Notes under the pieces: generated by a model | The model's input: the letters and a program-made list of their open reading frames with translations, nothing else | Databases searched by the model: none | Told to the model about the DNA's origin: nothing | Position numbers and translations under genes: made by a program | From: a virus | Taxonomy: Duplodnaviria; Heunggongvirae; Uroviricota; Caudoviricetes | Strand: one strand, 5' to 3' | IMG/VR virus record: IMGVR_UViG_2648501392_000008 | Length of the DNA: 15,547 nucleotides | Shown here: in pieces, positions 1 through 7,304 of the stretch | Numbering within the stretch: position 1 is the first letter of the stretch | Layout: every line of letters starts with the position of its first letter

Positions 1-259
1 ATCGGAAACGATGATCTGGCAGCCTGAGTTCACAGATAAAATACTCTCCAGGAAACCCGGGGCGGTTCACATCTGATTCAATCAGGCAGTTAACATGACA
101 TTCCGCAATCACGCCACCGGGTTCTCCTTTCCATTTTTGGCAAACAAAAACTCCTGTTAAATTGCCGTGCTGGTTAACAGATGTATGCCCTACGATGTAG
201 CTTCCTTTAGTTGCTTTCTCTGCCTTTTCACGCAGTGCCTGATAGTTAATTTGGGTCAC
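1..259 (-). CDS. Ead/Ea22-like prophage protein, N-terminal part only (gene runs off the window start)
   Basis: Minus-strand frame opens at GTG (259..257) overlapping the TGA of the upstream gene (GTGA), with GGAGGA 8 nt upstream. Translation MTQINYQALREKAEKATKGSYIVGH... recalls the conserved N-terminus of Ea22-like proteins (from memory). Not in the ORF track because there is no stop inside the window. Confidence 0.4.
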   Translation of the reverse strand, partial: MTQINYQALREKAEKATKGSYIVGHTSVNQHGNLTGVFVCQKWKGEPGGVIAECHVNCLIESDVNRPGFPGEYFICELRLPDHRFR

Positions 260-465
260 TCTTCATCCTCCAAGTCGGCAACGGCGTCCATCACATCAGA
301 ACCGCGAATAACCTCAAAAGCACGGCAGGCCATTTGAAATACCAGTTGCTCTTGCGGATGCGGTGATTCCCAATATTTGAATCCAGGGCGATGCGCGTAC
401 CCCATCATTGAATAAAAATCACCAGCAAGCTTAATCGCGGCATCAACAAGCTCTCTGTTAGTCAT
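256..465 (-). CDS. Hypothetical small prophage protein (about 69 aa from the internal ATG; ORF-track frame extends to 513)
   Basis: ORF-track frame 256..513; ATG at 465..463 sits 11 nt after the stop of the upstream gene (477) behind an A-rich GGAAAAAGA. Its last codons contain the SD of the next gene. No recognisable domain. Confidence 0.4.
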   Translation of the reverse strand: MTNRELVDAAIKLAGDFYSMMGYAHRPGFKYWESPHPQEQLVFQMACRAFEVIRGSDVMDAVADLEDEE

Positions 466-476
466 TCTTTTTCCGC

Positions 477-1088
477 TCACTGGTTGCCTCCTTTGCGAAT
501 CTGTTCCGCCCATTCTTCTAGGGATTTCTCCGCATATTCACCGGACAGGCCATCAATCGGGTGTGGTTCATTAGCCAACTCTTCTTTCGCTGACAGAATC
601 ATGCGTGTAACGTCGAAAACTTCACGTAAAGACTTATTGATAAATCCGTGATTGAAAGTAGCAGCAAGACGGCTTGCGGTATAGTTAATCCCCTCGTTGC
701 GTGCTTCCGCACGAATTTCAGCCAGGAAAGCATCGGTGGCTGGAGTTTCGCTGTGGTGTAGGGCATCGTTGATAATCATTGCAGCAACACCAGCCTGCCC
801 TGCATCCGTGACCGACACATGCTCAAGAGTTACGGCCATTGCGTGTTTCAGCCCCGCATTCTCCGCCGCCAGCGCCGAAAACTTCTCGTGTGCCAACTTA
901 ACAGCTGCATCAGCCTGCTTAATTGACTCAATCGCTTTCTGTTGGTCTTCGGACAGAGCCAAAATCTTGGCCTCCGCTTCAGCAAATTTACGCACCAGAT
1001 ATTCAGCATTTGTTTCATTCACTTTCAGATCTCGTGGTACACATTTCCCGCGAAGAAACCCTTCCATTTCGAAAACATTCATGCGCAT
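477..1088 (-). CDS. Hypothetical prophage protein, alanine/glutamate-rich and probably coiled-coil (203 aa)
   Basis: Long ORF with GGAG 8 nt upstream of ATG 1088; overlaps the stop of the upstream HD gene by 10 nt (translational coupling). No family recognised. Confidence 0.5.
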   Translation of the reverse strand: MRMNVFEMEGFLRGKCVPRDLKVNETNAEYLVRKFAEAEAKILALSEDQQKAIESIKQADAAVKLAHEKFSALAAENAGLKHAMAVTLEHVSVTDAGQAGVAAMIINDALHHSETPATDAFLAEIRAEARNEGINYTASRLAATFNHGFINKSLREVFDVTRMILSAKEELANEPHPIDGLSGEYAEKSLEEWAEQIRKGGNQ

Positions 1089-1615
1089 GTGCGTAACTCC
1101 GATAACTCGTTAAAGCGCTCCATAAACATCCCGTAGGCATGGCTCGGAGCCAGTGGAATAACTTTGAACATTTCTGTTGCCGGGATACCTTCCAGTACTG
1201 GCCAGAAAGAGCCATCATCAAGCCCGAGATCGCGGCGTTCGGTTGCCAGCATGATGAGATCGGCATATTTCACAGGCGTGCTCATAACCGGGGGTAACCC
1301 GTATTTCTCACGGATTACGGCGTCTATTTTTTCTTCCATCCGTTTATAGTCAGGAAGAAGGCGTTTCAGTGGAGCGGGAATATCCTGGCAATACGCTTCT
1401 GTTGCATCATGCATTAACGCTTCAAAAGCAAATTCCTGCGGCACCAGCTGGCTGCAAAGCACCGCATGTTGGGCGACACTGTAGAAGTGAGAAAGATGAC
1501 CGGCAAAGCGGCAGATATTTGAAAGGGAAACCGCGATATCGTTAATCACGATGTCGTCTTTATTTATCTTGTCATAATAAAAATGCTTCCCGGAAAAAGT
1601 TTTAATAAATGACAT
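1079..1615 (-). CDS. HD-domain phosphohydrolase (YfbR-like 5'-deoxynucleotidase family)
   Basis: ATG at 1615 with GGAGAA SD directly upstream (the ORF-track N-terminal extension to 1684 has no SD). Product MSFIKTFSGKHFYYD...HAVLCSQLV...ALMHDATEAY has the spacing and character of an HD-domain nucleotidase; the exact metal-binding residues were not mapped by eye. Confidence 0.6.
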   Translation of the reverse strand: MSFIKTFSGKHFYYDKINKDDIVINDIAVSLSNICRFAGHLSHFYSVAQHAVLCSQLVPQEFAFEALMHDATEAYCQDIPAPLKRLLPDYKRMEEKIDAVIREKYGLPPVMSTPVKYADLIMLATERRDLGLDDGSFWPVLEGIPATEMFKVIPLAPSHAYGMFMERFNELSELRTCA

Positions 1616-1705
1616 TTTGTTCTCCACGTTATATGCGCTGCACCGCTCTGAATTTTGATTGCAGCAATCCAGCCCATTTGACATGGGATGATTGCTGCAA
1701 TTTTT

Positions 1706-2624
1706 TTAAGTTGTTGGATTTTGGCTTTTATCTTCTTTGTAAGAAAGAAGGTCACACATCAAATTAACTACCTTGCTGAATTGGAAAAGGTCAGCGCCAG
1801 TCTGATGACGCCACTGGAATGCTTTATCATCTTCATCATTAAATGTCTGAGATTGAGTATTGATGCGCGAAAAATGGAAATTTTCGGTAAGAATGAAGGT
1901 CACACCGCAACCGGATAACTCCATTTTATCAGCAGTGAAACTACTACTAAGACTATCGGCCAGTTCGCTTTGAATTGACTCATGCTCAGCTGAGTAGCGA
2001 ATAATTTCCTTTTGATCTGCGTAGCGTGATAGCTGAATATAATTTCCGACAGTGAATCCTTCAAATGCATTGGCTGCACCATTGATGTAGTTATTCAGGC
2101 GTGTAGTCAGTCCATTCTTGATATCACTGATGTTGATTGTTTCTGTTTTCACTGAACCGACAACCTTAATCAGCATTGCGCATACCATACCGGCTATTAT
2201 TTTATTGGTTGTGTTGATTACCAATAATTTCTCATCAGTGCTGTACAATGCAAGAATCAGCGTAGACTTAACAAATGCCTGTTTGGCATAGATCTACTCG
2301 TACGTTATCAATAATGGCCAGTCGTTCGGCACGCTTTAATTTATTCCCGGACATATTTTCGATTGTTTGGATTCGAGAATTAGCTTCTTTCATGACGACA
2401 TGTCGGGGAATTATTTTCTGATCATGACGGATTACCATTGCGTACCCACCAGATATCGGAGTTACCAGTTCACCAGTGACAGGATTCTCTACAAAAGAGG
2501 ACCGTGAAAATTCTGTTTCCCCGATTTCAGAATAAGGGAGTTCGAGAAGATGACCTTCAATAGCCTGTATACTAGGTAATGTTGCTCGGTACACAATTGC
2601 GTTACGAAATTTTGGTAATTTCAT
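1706..2624 (-). pseudogene. rdgC: rdgC-like recombination-associated gene interrupted by a frameshift near 2270-2295
   Basis: ATG at 2624 with GAGGAAAA SD gives MKLPKFRNAIVYRATLP...KIIPRHVVMKEA, resembling the RdgC N-terminus (MLWFKNLMVYRL...KILPSPVIKQAL, recalled). The frame stops at 2268, and the continuation (QAFVKS...LLVINTTNKIIAGMV..., ORF 1706..2248) is in another frame. The two pieces sum to about 300 aa, the RdgC length. Confidence 0.55.
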
Positions 2625-2953
2625 TCTATTTTCCTCTGCACAAGATATTAGTTTCTCCACAAAACAGAGAAGAACACCTGCGGTGGCAGCCGCCCGGGTG
2701 GATTGGGTTATGAGCCCGTCGTCCGGTGATGCTCTTCTCTGTTTTGTAAAAAGAGCGGTACCAGCCGGAAGCAAGTGTACAAACTGGTACCGCCAAAGCA
2801 GTGGCTGCTGTGGTGACCGATGCTGATCTCCGGCTTGCGGTTATTTCAGACTCTCACGGGCGTTTAATTGCCCCGCCGAACAGCTCTTTTCCGCAATAGC
2901 TGCAATGTCTTTCGCGCATCAGCCTGCGCATTCACCACAACTCTAAAAACAAA

Positions 2954-3004
2954 TGTAGGATATCCAACATGCGAGTGTCAAGAGTTTATGTTGGTTATCC
3001 TACA
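2954..3004. promoter_or_regulatory. OL-like operator pair: 17-bp inverted repeat tgtaggatatccaacat (2954-2970) / atgttggttatcctaca (2988-3004)
   Basis: Near-perfect 17-bp inverted repeat (1 mismatch, 17-bp spacer) just downstream of the cI terminator; the same motif recurs in the cI-cro intergenic region. Confidence 0.5.
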
Positions 3005-3021
3005 TAAAAAGATAGGCTCAT

Positions 3022-3047
3022 AAAAAAACCGGGGATACCCCGGTTTT
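3022..3047 (-). terminator. Rho-independent terminator downstream of cI (bidirectional-looking hairpin)
   Basis: Stem accgggg / ccccggt with loop ata, flanked by an A-run on plus (= U-run on the minus transcript), about 20 bp after the cI stop. Confidence 0.65.
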
Positions 3048-3067
3048 GCGATAGTGAGGAAGATGTG

Positions 3068-3721
3068 TCAAAAATCCATTATTACTTGTTTGACAAGACC
3101 AACTATTCTGCAGTTCTCACCGCATTCAATAGTTTTATAGTTAGGATTTAGTGGGACGAGATACCTGTTCGGCCAGTCCTCAACAAATTTTTTGAGTGTC
3201 GCTTCTTGCCCACCATTGATATGGGCAACAACGATTTTTCCGTTAATACACTCTGTATCAATAATATCTGGCTCTACGATAACGATAGAACCTTCTGGTA
3301 TCGATGGTGAGCCGAGGGGATTGGTCATTGAATCACCACGGACCCGTAGTGCAAATGCCATTTCTGATACAAGGGCGGTAGTATAAACCCACTCTTCAGC
3401 ATCTTCTTTCCTGACACCAGGCTCCGTCATTGTCCATGAACCCGCCTGAACCCACGAGATTAGGGGGACTTTTTTAACTGCGAATATTTCAGGTTTTAGA
3501 TTTATCTTTGGTTCAGGCGAGCCTTTTCCGCTAACAAGCCACAGAGGATCGCATTTAAGTGCGTTGGCTAGGGCTTGAAGGTTGGCTCCATTTGGTTGGT
3601 AGTCGTCCTTTTCCCATCCAGTAACCGTGACACGGTTCACACCAGTCAAATCAGCCAGTGCTTGTTGTGTCAGGTTCAGTTCTTTTCGCCTTTGGCGAAT
3701 ACGATCACTCATGTTCATCAT
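3068..3721 (-). CDS. cI: cI-like phage repressor (N-terminal XRE-type HTH, C-terminal S24/LexA-type autopeptidase)
   Basis: N-terminus RIRQRRKELNLTQQALADLTGVNRVTVTGWE is a classic HTH; C-terminus has GDSM (catalytic Ser) and a downstream Lys in LexA/S24 arrangement. Divergent from the cro-like gene with operator repeats between them. Confidence 0.85.
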   Translation of the reverse strand: MMNMSDRIRQRRKELNLTQQALADLTGVNRVTVTGWEKDDYQPNGANLQALANALKCDPLWLVSGKGSPEPKINLKPEIFAVKKVPLISWVQAGSWTMTEPGVRKEDAEEWVYTTALVSEMAFALRVRGDSMTNPLGSPSIPEGSIVIVEPDIIDTECINGKIVVAHINGGQEATLKKFVEDWPNRYLVPLNPNYKTIECGENCRIVGLVKQVIMDF

Positions 3722-3783
3722 GTAGGCAATCCTACCACATGCCCATGTAGGATTCTTGACATTGGCATGTTGGATATCCTACA
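3721..3783. promoter_or_regulatory. OR-like operator cluster (3 sites: 3721-3736, 3746-3762, 3767-3783) in the cI-cro divergent promoter region
   Basis: Repeats of the TGTAGG...CCTACA half-site family: tgtaggcaatcctacc, tgtaggattcttgacat, atgttggatatcctaca. The last is the exact reverse complement of the site at 2954-2970. Confidence 0.55.
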
Positions 3784-3816
3784 TTTCTGCTTAACGTAAT
3801 TTAACGGGAGACAGAA

Positions 3817-4014
3817 ATGCGGAAATCCGACGTGATTAATTATTTCGGCGGAGTTTGTAAAATCGCCGAAGCCCTAGGTATTAAGCATCCGTCTGTTTCA
3901 GAGTGGCCTGAGATTATTCCTGAAGGCCGAGCGTACCAGTTAGAAAAAATTACTAACGGGAAACTGAAAGTTGACGTGTCTTTATATCAAAAGACTAACA
4001 GTGCTGCGGCATAA
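3817..4014 (+). CDS. Cro-like small DNA-binding protein (YdaS/Cro family)
   Basis: 65-aa ORF divergent from cI, GGGAGA SD 7 nt upstream of ATG; GGVCKIAEALGIKHPSVSEW is a YdaS/Cro-type HTH. Confidence 0.65.
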   Translation: MRKSDVINYFGGVCKIAEALGIKHPSVSEWPEIIPEGRAYQLEKITNGKLKVDVSLYQKTNSAAA

Positions 4015-4041
4015 AAACACCACAGAAATGAGGAATTAACC

Positions 4042-4626
4042 GTGGGTAAAGAACCTGAATGGAAAGTTGATAAACAACCAGCATGGCTGGTGGCAGCAAT
4101 ACGAAGAACGATTGCTGATTTACCTCATGGCTATGAGGAAGCAGCAGAAATTCTTGGTTTGTATAAATCTGATGATATCACCCCAGCAAAAGATCAATTG
4201 CATAACAGACTGCGTAGCGGTGGGGATCAAATTTTTCCACTTGAGTGGGCCATGGTTTTACAGGATGCCAGTGGTACCAGGCATGTAACAGATGCAATAG
4301 CCCGTCGTAGTAATGGGGTGTTTGTGCCGCTGGTGGTCATTGATGACATTGACAATGGTGACATTAATCAGCGGCTGATGGAGTCAATAGAATGGATTGG
4401 CAAGCATTCCCAGTACTTACGCAAGGCAACTGCTGATGGAGTTATTGACCAGGCTGAGCGTGAGCAAATCGAAGAGAACAGCTACCAAGTAATGGCGAAG
4501 TGGCAGGAGCATTTAACACTGTTATTTCGTGTTTTTTGTGCGCCGGAAAAGAGTAACGCCCGCGAGTGTGCAGCTCCGGGCGTCGTGGCGTCGATTGCTT
4601 CTGGTTGTGGAGAAACTAACGCATGA
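4042..4626 (+). CDS. CII-like / YdaT-like prophage regulatory protein
   Basis: GTG start with GAGGA SD 7 nt upstream; position immediately after the Cro/YdaS-like gene; product loosely resembles YdaT / phage-186-CII-type proteins (recalled, not searched). Confidence 0.5.
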   Translation: MGKEPEWKVDKQPAWLVAAIRRTIADLPHGYEEAAEILGLYKSDDITPAKDQLHNRLRSGGDQIFPLEWAMVLQDASGTRHVTDAIARRSNGVFVPLVVIDDIDNGDINQRLMESIEWIGKHSQYLRKATADGVIDQAEREQIEENSYQVMAKWQEHLTLLFRVFCAPEKSNARECAAPGVVASIASGCGETNA

Positions 4627-5783
4627 ATAGTTTAACGGCAAATAACCGTTTGTCGCAACAGCTGGTGGTCAGCGTCGCTGAACACCTGTTGTTACGGCAT
4701 GAATGCAGATTACCAAATCACCTGGCTGTAAGTAACCACAGAGAACTTTACCTGACTGTGGGGGGCGAGTTGTGCAGGAACTTAACCGCTGGTTTCGTGA
4801 CGGAAGAGGGCTTTATGTCCATGTTATTCGTTGGGAGCCAGAAACACAGCGCGTTATCTATCTTCGCAAAGACTACCCGCATGAGTGCTTTAGTCCTTTG
4901 TGGAAATTCAGGCGTGATTTTGTTGAGTGTGAAGGACCACCAGCATATTGATTCTGCAATTCCGGGACGTTACACTGCTCAGGCACCTTATAAAGCGGGT
5001 GCCGGGATTGGCGTCCTGAAATTGTCAACGGCGATGTATGACGCGCCAGCGTCTTTTTTATCGTCCGCATTTGCTCACATCCAGATTATGGTGGGCTGGG
5101 CGGGGGCACCGAAAGGTGCGCCGGTCTCCGTTGACGCCGGTTACGCCAACCCCGTCCAGTTCACCACCAGTGAAATTGGCGTTTCCGGTGGTGGAAGTTT
5201 TTCACTGTCAACGGAGGCTGCCATCATGGCTACGATCCCAGCCCTCACTCAACCTGAAATCACCATTGACAACGGCCAGGCCGTTACCACTTCTTTGGCT
5301 GTTGCCAACTTCTTCTCCAAGCGTCACGACGATGTGCTGAAAAAGATCCGCACTCTGGATTGTTCCCCAGAGTTTTGTGCCCGCAATTTTGCGGAGACAT
5401 CGATTTCGGTAAATCAACCGAACGGTGGTACACGCAAGCTCCCTTGCTATCAAATCACACGAGACGGTTTTGCGTTTCTTGCTATGGGTTTCACGGGTAA
5501 ACGTGCTGCCCGGTTCAAAGAGGCATACATAAATGCCTTTAACCAGATGGAGAAACAGCTTTCAAAGCCCGCTGTACCGAGCGACGTTGCACATAACGCC
5601 AGCGTTCTCTGTTCCTACATTTCATCAATTCATCAGGTCTGGCTGCAGCAGCTTTATCCTATGTTGGCAAAAGCCGAATCTCCGCTGGCTGTTAGCTTAT
5701 ATGACTATATTAATGATGCTTCGGCGCTGGCCAGTCTCATAAATTTGTCGCTGAACCCTTCAGAGGTAAGGGGGCGCAAATGA
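4623..5783 (+). CDS. Rha-domain phage regulatory protein with a roughly 200-aa N-terminal region of unknown function
   Basis: ATGA overlap with the upstream stop. Residues about 210-310 (QAVTTSLAVANFFSKRHDDVLKKIRTL...ITRDGFAFLAMGFTGKRAARFKEAYINAFNQME) match the Rha/pRha domain. An internal ATG at 5226 with GGAGG upstream could also initiate a standalone Rha protein. Confidence 0.55.
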   Translation: MNSLTANNRLSQQLVVSVAEHLLLRHECRLPNHLAVSNHRELYLTVGGELCRNLTAGFVTEEGFMSMLFVGSQKHSALSIFAKTTRMSALVLCGNSGVILLSVKDHQHIDSAIPGRYTAQAPYKAGAGIGVLKLSTAMYDAPASFLSSAFAHIQIMVGWAGAPKGAPVSVDAGYANPVQFTTSEIGVSGGGSFSLSTEAAIMATIPALTQPEITIDNGQAVTTSLAVANFFSKRHDDVLKKIRTLDCSPEFCARNFAETSISVNQPNGGTRKLPCYQITRDGFAFLAMGFTGKRAARFKEAYINAFNQMEKQLSKPAVPSDVAHNASVLCSYISSIHQVWLQQLYPMLAKAESPLAVSLYDYINDASALASLINLSLNPSEVRGRK

Positions 5784-6004
5784 TCCGGAATATTTTCAAA
5801 CGGTTTACCAATCATACTTTCCGTTGTCCTCGTCCGGGTCAGTGGTACACCACGCCTGCTGGGCATGTTCTACGTGTTAGCCTGGTTGACCGTGAATGTC
5901 AGAAGGTGGTTTGTGAACCGCTGGGCCGTAATTACCGCGTCAGTATGCCGCTTATAGCCTTTTGCTCCGGAAAAATGTTTAAGCGTCTGGGAGGTGTGGC
6001 GTGA
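5780..6004 (+). CDS. Hypothetical small protein (74 aa, several Cys)
   Basis: ATGA overlap with the Rha gene stop; AGGGGG SD 6 nt upstream. Confidence 0.4.
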   Translation: MIRNIFKRFTNHTFRCPRPGQWYTTPAGHVLRVSLVDRECQKVVCEPLGRNYRVSMPLIAFCSGKMFKRLGGVA

Positions 6005-6300
6005 ACTGTTTTCAGTTTGTGTGCGGATGTGCTTTCGATAACCCGATTCAGCGCCTAATTATGTTGCGTGTTTTGATGTCGGGTTCTTCAGACGGTGAAG
6101 GCGAGAGAGTTATTGATCATCAGGTGCTTGCTGATTTCTGCTGTTGTTCTAAGCAAGCGATATTCAGGGAAACCCTGGCACTGGAAAGAGCTGGTTATCT
6201 TCATATCCGAAAAATTGCAACGCTTACTATTGATGCAAAAGCCAGACTACAACCTGCGCGTGGCTACACAATTCTCATGCTGCGGAAGGAGGTTGTATGA
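6001..6300 (+). CDS. Hypothetical winged-helix-like DNA-binding protein (99 aa), possibly replication-associated
   Basis: GTG start overlapping the upstream stop (GTGA) with GGGAGGTG SD; LADFCCCSKQAIFRETLALERAGYLHIRK looks like a wHTH recognition region. Assignment is weak. Confidence 0.4.
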   Translation: MNCFQFVCGCAFDNPIQRLIMLRVLMSGSSDGEGERVIDHQVLADFCCCSKQAIFRETLALERAGYLHIRKIATLTIDAKARLQPARGYTILMLRKEVV

Positions 6301-7304
6301 GCCGTTACGCCCCCACACCGGAAGTTATGGCTATTGGTCAAATTAATATTTCCGGCAATGTTACACCTGCGACCTGGTGGAAATATATTCGACTACCCAG
6401 TGGGCGTCCGGATGCGACGGCTATCGCTCTGCTTTCAGAGATCGTTTACTGGTACCGCCCGACAGAGGTCAGGGATGAGCACACCGGAGCGTTGCTGGGA
6501 TATCGCAAGCGTTTTCAGGGCGACAAACTGCAAAGAAGCTACCAGGCGTTTGCTGAGCAGTTTGGTTTCGGGAAAAGGGAAACCGCAGATGCGCTGAAGC
6601 GTCTGCGCGATGCAGGGTTTATTACTCTGGATTTACGCACGGTGGAAATGCTCGATGGGGTGAAATGCAGCAATATTTTGTTTGTCGGGATCAACCCACA
6701 GGCAATTGCGGCCATCACCACACCTTCTTCTGTTTCGCCAGAAAGTAACAGCAATAATGCAATCAGCGATACAGCTATTACGTTAAAACGGAACACCCCC
6801 CGACGTCATAACGGAACAGGGGATACGCCGAATGTTGATACAAATACAGAGATTACTACAGAGATTACTACAGAGATTACTACAGAGATTACAACGGAGA
6901 CTAAAAACACTATTGGCGCATCCGCTGACGCGTCTGCACCAGCGCGTTCTGCCAGACAGGAATATTCACCGGAATTTGAACAGGCCTGGCAGGAATATCC
7001 CAAACGTGCTGGTGGTAATTCAAAATCCGCCGCTTTTAAAGCCTGGAAAGCCCGAATCAGGGAAGGTGTGACACCCGAAACCATGCTCGACGGTGTGAAA
7101 CGCTATGCCGCCTGGGTGCGTGTCTCTGGAAATACCGGTACCCAGTTCGTGAAGCAGGCGTCGACGTTCTTTGGTCCGGATCGTCATTTCGAAGAATCCT
7201 GGGAAGTTCCTGCGGTATCTGCAGCCAGACGCGAGGACCCGTACTTCAAAGCCAGTTACGACAACGTGGACTACAGCCAGATCCCGGAAGGATTCAGGGG
7301 GTGA
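6297..7304 (+). CDS. Phage replication initiation protein (lambda O-like / replisome organiser) with origin iterons inside the gene
   Basis: GGAAGGAGG SD before ATG 6297; N-terminal wHTH-like region; C-terminal EFEQAWQEYPKRAGGNSKSAAFKAWKARI motif typical of enterobacterial prophage replication proteins; 12-bp iterons within the coding sequence. Confidence 0.7.
   Translation: MSRYAPTPEVMAIGQINISGNVTPATWWKYIRLPSGRPDATAIALLSEIVYWYRPTEVRDEHTGALLGYRKRFQGDKLQRSYQAFAEQFGFGKRETADALKRLRDAGFITLDLRTVEMLDGVKCSNILFVGINPQAIAAITTPSSVSPESNSNNAISDTAITLKRNTPRRHNGTGDTPNVDTNTEITTEITTEITTEITTETKNTIGASADASAPARSARQEYSPEFEQAWQEYPKRAGGNSKSAAFKAWKARIREGVTPETMLDGVKRYAAWVRVSGNTGTQFVKQASTFFGPDRHFEESWEVPAVSAARREDPYFKASYDNVDYSQIPEGFRG
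6846..6893. repeat. Iteron array: 4 tandem copies of 12-bp acagagattact (candidate phage replication origin)
   Basis: Direct tandem repeats at 6846-6857, 6858-6869, 6870-6881 and 6882-6893 (last copy 1 mismatch), encoding TEIT repeats in the O-like protein. Confidence 0.7.

Follow-up and report, generated by a model that had tools for sequence, protein, structure and literature searches.

A gene of the RdgC family carried by an Escherichia coli prophage is found as two open reading frames (ORFs) lying in different frames, which raises the question of whether the gene has been inactivated by a mutation, has been misread during sequencing or assembly, or is normally expressed in two parts or by recoding. 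The DNA analysed here (hereafter the window) has 15,547 nt and is the entire contig JHRX01000088.1 of the E. coli draft assembly GCA_001265685.1; all positions are those of the window. An earlier note, made from the sequence alone, had described the two RdgC-like segments and had proposed gene decay in a cryptic prophage, a sequencing or assembly indel and, as a less likely case, programmed frameshifting.

Two halves of one RdgC family gene

The features of the gene are as follows.

2268..2624, minus strand: ORF of the N-terminal fragment of the prophage rdgC, with 113 native codons, 5 out-of-frame codons (QTGIC) and the stop TAA at 2270-2268 (118 aa)
1706..2284, minus strand: C-terminal rdgC part, with 192 native codons (K114 to T305) and the stop, in the +1 frame relative to the start codon
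2632..2636, minus strand: Shine-Dalgarno-like GAGGA, read from the sequence, 7 nt before the ATG at 2624-2622
2285..2286, minus strand: frameshift site, CC in place of the single C of intact copies (1-nt insertion after codon 113)
2271..2293, minus strand: zone of 23 nt open in both frames, ATCTATGCCAAACAGGCATTTGT, between TAG 2296-2294 (+1 frame) and TAA 2270-2268 (frame 0)

The N-terminal (2268..2624) and C-terminal (1706..2248) segments described previously are both present. The open frame of the N-terminal half extends from 2774 to 2268 (minus strand), and its likely start at ATG 2624-2622 gives a product of 118 aa; the GAGGA motif and the same start annotated in relatives support this ATG as the probable true start. 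The C-terminal ORF, as called mechanically, covers 2248..1706 (minus strand), starts with TTG at 2248 and encodes 180 aa. The Pfam RdgC profile (PF04381) matches the 118-aa half over profile positions 3-113 of 298 (E 2.4e-13, 50.5 bits) and the 180-aa half over positions 124-279 (E 1.8e-9, 37.8 bits). The two halves thus cover successive stretches of one family profile, in the correct order and with no overlap, and the observation of a split rdgC-like gene is confirmed far beyond chance.

The earlier note had found that the halves sum to about full length. Deletion of one C in silico restores a protein of 305 aa that is 100% identical to WP_000775327.1, found in many E. coli prophages beside yfdR. 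This frame-restored protein gives a single match to the Pfam RdgC profile (3-278 of 298, 108.4 bits for a cut-off of 25) and is similar in sequence to the E. coli RdgC (2OWL) over residues 6-259 (E 2.3e-9). All six NCBIfam RdgC models (NF001460-NF001465) score it below their curated cut-offs, the best reaching 91 bits against 227 (NF001464). As these scores are far under the cut-offs, the protein belongs to a divergent phage-borne branch of RdgC and is not an equivalent of the chromosomal gene. Chromosomal RdgC, represented by the structures of the E. coli (2OWL) and Pseudomonas aeruginosa (2OWY) proteins, forms a ring-shaped dimer, binds DNA and inhibits RecA. The prophage protein shares with it the PF04381 family over nearly the whole profile, as well as an aligned gate Phe, but chromosomal rdgC is a housekeeping gene, whereas the gene of the window represents a distant subfamily, is phage-encoded in a pL operon and is frameshifted. 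In the window, the frame is broken after codon 113 and no single polypeptide of about 300 aa is encoded. Because relatives carry a single 305-aa ORF, the locus is a pseudogene of an RdgC family member rather than an intact member.

The frameshift site

The window reads CTATGCCAAAC where intact copies read CTATGCAAAC, the extra C being one of the CC at 2286/2285 (gene positions 339/340). Intact copies were taken from three complete E. coli genomes, each with a 918-bp rdgC encoding WP_000775327.1. The 919-nt gene of the window aligns to these three genes with one gap and with one other base difference from each. The switch had been placed near 2270-2295, around ctatgcc on the minus strand, and the alignment shows this position to be exact. 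As the +1 frame is closed by TAG at 2296-2294 and frame 0 by TAA at 2270-2268, the 23 nt at 2293-2271 are the only possible zone for a change of frame. Past the extra C, frame 0 encodes QTGIC before the TAA, whereas the native sequence KQAFVKST... continues in the +1 frame, so that the window copy encodes 118 aa instead of 305 aa. The insertion is recent, because, the extra C aside, only one base differs from each intact copy aligned.

The inserted C creates a perfect 5-bp hairpin, ATGCC-AAACA-GGCAT (window 2277-2291, minus strand), where the intact allele has the imperfect ATGC-AAACAG-GCAT. Such a perfected quasi-palindrome matches template-switch mutagenesis and may hint at this origin, with a simple one-base duplication being equally possible. 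When single-base insertions or duplications were simulated at random on the intact gene, 6-8% of them likewise came to lie in a perfect stem of 5 bp or more. A contingency locus with phase variation was considered as well and rejected, as there is no repeat tract and the run is only CC.

Occurrence of the allele and of intact copies

The window segment 1500-2900 was compared by megablast with 5,426 complete E. coli genomes. It gave 20 records with a coverage of at least 80% and an identity of 98-99.7%, each annotated with a single rdgC beside yfdR, and the full-length matches are one base shorter than the query. An 80-nt probe across the site matched 20 complete E. coli genomes carrying the segment, none of which has the extra C: no match reached 99% identity, and in each of the eight matches listed, 79 bases align with the query of 80. 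An exact 39-mer with the extra C had no match in one-genome-per-species contigs, IMG/VR viral contigs or JGI metagenome contigs. The present rdgC was not found in any INPHARED phage record, where only flanking sequence matches, chiefly the leader and, for three of the records, also the yfdR end; the plasmid search gave no match. The exact intact protein occurs on 607 public contigs, a close variant of 305 aa on 461, and the 118-aa product on only two. The allele is therefore rare, and the second carrier of the truncated product was found only through an exact-protein look-up. The neighbouring yfdR is shared by relatives carrying WP_000775327.1, and the repressor/cro module is shared in strain CAU16175.

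A homologue search returned 164 proteins. Among the 120 listed, about 100 have 301-320 aa (most 301-313 aa), each as one protein, about a dozen are shorter (three of them named 'partial'), and about eight have 364-385 aa, some with an added FtsK-gamma domain. In five of these longer proteins (P0110, P0111, P0115, P0118 and P0120; 372-385 aa, 37-39% identity), the extra domain is PF09397 (FtsK gamma), giving a fusion of RdgC with a DNA-sequence-reading winged helix. For the protein cluster, the sequences of five shorter members were compared. Four of them are either named 'partial' or miss nothing but the N-terminus, their start having been called further downstream, and all four are in the normal frame; the remaining one has the same N-terminal 121 residues with one substitution.

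Two cluster members of 121 aa (P0132 and P0133, on three contigs in all) both end with …KQAFVKST, 8 codons beyond the frameshift of the window; one bears the name 'partial' together with a full-protein name, the other 'partial' only. In strain G5 (NZ_CP060065.1, hit H11), the match to window 1500-2900 is in two pieces that together span about 650 extra bases, and two hypothetical genes are annotated. There may be a recurrent mosaic junction or insertion point inside rdgC.

A genuine insertion or a sequencing error

The evidence is best explained by a genuine single-base insertion that inactivated a prophage-borne rdgC, making the locus a private frameshift pseudogene of an accessory gene; a probability of about 85% is given to this reading. 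The main alternative is an extra C introduced by sequencing or assembly, in which case the genome itself would carry an intact gene. The contig comes from a draft assembly made up of short contigs, the allele is on only two contigs against about 1,000 intact ones, and a single base difference from each intact copy, the extra C aside, is also what would be expected of an error. However, the Logan contig SRR19671036_191 (6,660 nt), which was assembled separately, matches window 215-6874 at 100% identity and has the extra C. The two assemblies, which by accession numbers apparently derive from different sequencing runs, suggest that the base is real, although the comparison is made at the assembly level and a systematic error could recur in two data sets. 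Indel errors concentrate in long homopolymers, and consensus indel errors elsewhere are rare at normal coverage. Here, the change is from C to CC, with no long homopolymer, and both the NCBI contig and the Logan assembly agree, whereas an artefact would typically be seen in one assembly only and in a homopolymer. An assembly artefact is therefore unlikely, and the indel error proposed from the sequence alone has lost ground to the genuine insertion.

Programmed frameshifting and two-gene arrangements

A functional split would involve either a programmed +1 frameshift within 2293-2271, providing low-level full-length RdgC, or halves made separately and assembling. The 23-nt zone is indeed open in both frames, the conserved Phe would be retained if the +1 shift took place no later than the GGC codon, and the extra C lies within the small perfect hairpin described above. 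On the other hand, the shifted arrangement is not conserved: it is absent from all 20 complete genomes and from the approximately 1,000 contigs with the intact protein, and homologues down to 37% identity are nearly all single full-length ORFs. No codon of the zone would allow +1 re-pairing of the P-site tRNA beside a stop or rare codon, and there is no A or T run for transcriptional slippage; the 23-nt overlap shows no known +1 or slippery motif and no homopolymer. The fold of 2310..2240 has z = -0.81, with 50 of 200 shuffles folding as well. The comparison with the +1 frameshifting of prfB (RF2) leads to the same view. The sole likeness is the +1 shift needed to join the halves, whereas the CUU-UGA-type site and the upstream Shine-Dalgarno-like stimulator of prfB, at its spacing, are absent in the window. 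As for halves made separately, neither TTG 2248 nor the in-frame ATGs that follow it have a Shine-Dalgarno sequence upstream, and the break lies inside the gate domain and not in the domain linker S160-N170 (PMC2965237). A functional split is thus considered highly improbable, in agreement with the low rank that programmed frameshifting had been given from the start.

That two adjacent RdgC-like genes could be the normal arrangement in a group of phages is barely credible: gene callers and RefSeq/UniRef do give the halves as two proteins, each named 'recombination-associated protein RdgC' (WP_282956674.1, 118 aa, and WP_349251647.1, 180 aa) and without a pseudogene flag, but the three relatives inspected all have one 918-bp gene, the lengths of the listed homologues and the normal frame of the short cluster members refute the idea, and the halves match complementary parts of one Pfam profile instead of two full copies.

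Predicted effect on the protein

In E. coli RdgC, the finger comprises residues 77-115, with the basic fingertip residues R97, K98, K100 and K101, the gate interface involves R118 and F120, and the horseshoe interface involves Q212, E218, H222 and K227; the substitutions F120S, F120T and K227A abolish function in vivo (PMC2965237). In the 2OWL alignment, F117 of the prophage protein stands opposite the gate Phe F120, and the break, at K114, is opposite P117, right after the finger and before the gate Phe. Three of the four basic fingertip residues align (K95, K97 and R98 opposite K98, K100 and K101). For the horseshoe interface, where identity is low and the alignment uncertain, E218 corresponds to E220 and Q212, H222 and K227 are unmatched.

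The change from C to CC after codon 113 is predicted to add five wrong codons followed by TAA, giving a 118-aa product from the normal ATG. Of the native protein, this product would keep the basic finger and the N-terminal portion of the gate domain; F117, encoded past the frameshift, and the whole horseshoe dimerisation half would be missing. Because the gate Phe and the horseshoe half are lost, it should form no closed ring round DNA. A loss of function is thus expected, by low-identity homology to the E. coli RdgC. The 192 remaining codons, in the +1 frame and with no convincing ribosome-binding site, are probably not translated in useful amounts, some restart at TTG 2248 or at a later ATG, with fragments complementing each other, being possible. 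The premature stop could also lower the expression of yfdR and of downstream genes through polarity.

It is very unlikely that the break is other than neutral, either because loss of an RdgC/RexA-like protein was selected (for example, that of an early-left RecA inhibitor altering induction or host recombination) or because some full-length or two-piece RdgC is still made from the allele via low-level +1 read-through or restart.

Genomic setting

The following features surround rdgC.

1079..1615, minus strand: yfdR-like 5'-deoxynucleotidase gene, next gene downstream in the same operon (from the annotation of relatives)
2952..2981, minus strand: pL-like promoter (TTGACA, 18 nt, TACATT), overlapped by palindromic operators, with rdgC as the first ORF downstream
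2953-2970, 2988-3005 and 3767-3784: 18-nt palindromic operator ATGTTGGATATCCTACAT
3022..3047, minus strand: intrinsic-terminator-like hairpin with a 10-bp G+C-rich stem (-17 kcal/mol, z = -3.87), then UUUUUUU

By this layout, the early-left (pL) operon of a lambdoid prophage, in an E. coli draft genome, apparently begins with rdgC. The contig encodes Ea22-like, yfdR-like and rdgC genes, an S24-peptidase repressor (3721..3068, minus strand), Cro, CII-like and Rha proteins, replication genes, Dam, LexA-like, RusA, KilA-N, DUF968 and Q-like proteins and a DNA methylase. The earlier note had spoken of gene decay in a cryptic prophage. The inactivating indel in rdgC bears out the decay of this gene, but the 'cryptic' state is not established, the other early genes on the 15.5-kb contig looking intact: those compared match their own family profiles over most of the profile length. 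A general decay of the prophage is rejected on present evidence, as gene calls are full-length for the repressor, cro, CII-like, Rha, replication, Dam, RusA, KilA-N, DUF968, Q-like and methylase genes, and the break in rdgC is therefore isolated.

The yfdR-like ORF (window 1079-1684, minus strand) is open over 201 codons from ATG 1684. In relatives, the annotated gene has 178 codons (537 nt, start at 1615). Against the Pfam YfbR-like profile, the ORF scores 24.0 bits, just under the cut-off of 25.9.

Identical promoters (TTGACA, 18 nt, TACATT) are found leftward at 2981..2952 and rightward at 3756..3785, the latter, pR-like, being carried together with an operator by a near-identical 40-nt inverted copy at 3754-3793. 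The terminator-like hairpin lies just past the repressor gene, between the repressor transcript and the pL operon. From its position about 330 nt downstream of the pL-like promoter, rdgC should be off in the lysogen and turned on when the prophage is induced. Indeed, because both the hairpin and the operator-covered promoter precede it, rdgC is more likely an early lytic gene, repressed in the lysogen. A few lambdoid phages are known to carry RdgC homologues just left of cI, for which expression from the cI transcript, like that of rexA, has been suggested (PMC12315714); the RexA protein of lambda shares the RdgC fold (PMC11077077). The window has the same layout as these early-left homologues, but, in contrast to the suggested cI-transcript expression, the hairpin (3047-3022) and the pL-like promoter (2981-2952) stand between the repressor gene and rdgC.

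The pL leader itself contains an almost perfect hairpin (window 2654-2752, minus strand), with arms of about 25 bp at 2659-2683 and 2723-2747 (-49.2 kcal/mol, z = -6.4), ending about 30 nt before the rdgC start. The leader region 2648-2900 recurs at 97-98% identity in mEp460 and in many Stx-converting phages, in which different genes follow it, and PGAP calls a frameshifted partial pseudogene in this region in strain CAU16175. The hairpin may act in processing, termination or antitermination, or may be what remains of a gene.

On the plus strand, Rfam identifies isrK (4983-5059, 62 bits) and a C4 antisense RNA (5084-5171, 81 bits) inside a 386-aa ORF (4623-5783), which gene callers give as a single protein. 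A Pfam 'Ash' match at aa 117-212 of this ORF covers the same DNA as both RNAs, the Rha domain starts from aa 222, and PGAP calls a shorter Rha gene of 894 nt in a relative. The upstream part of the ORF may be an RNA-based immunity module like that of P1 c4 and not coding.

Meaning of the broken gene

The split rdgC is an ordinary inactivating mutation, known in kind and involving no special coding device, and it has little significance beyond annotation hygiene; both fragments are already in RefSeq, and the gene is a known accessory phage gene. WP_282956674.1 and WP_349251647.1 are to be read as one frameshifted pseudogene, their separate entries being an annotation flaw. For the prophage, carriage is possible without an intact phage-borne rdgC, which is in this sense dispensable. 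For the family, the locus provides one clear case of a phage rdgC that lies behind pL and not in the repressor transcript, which bears on the expression proposed for its lambdoid homologues (PMC12315714).
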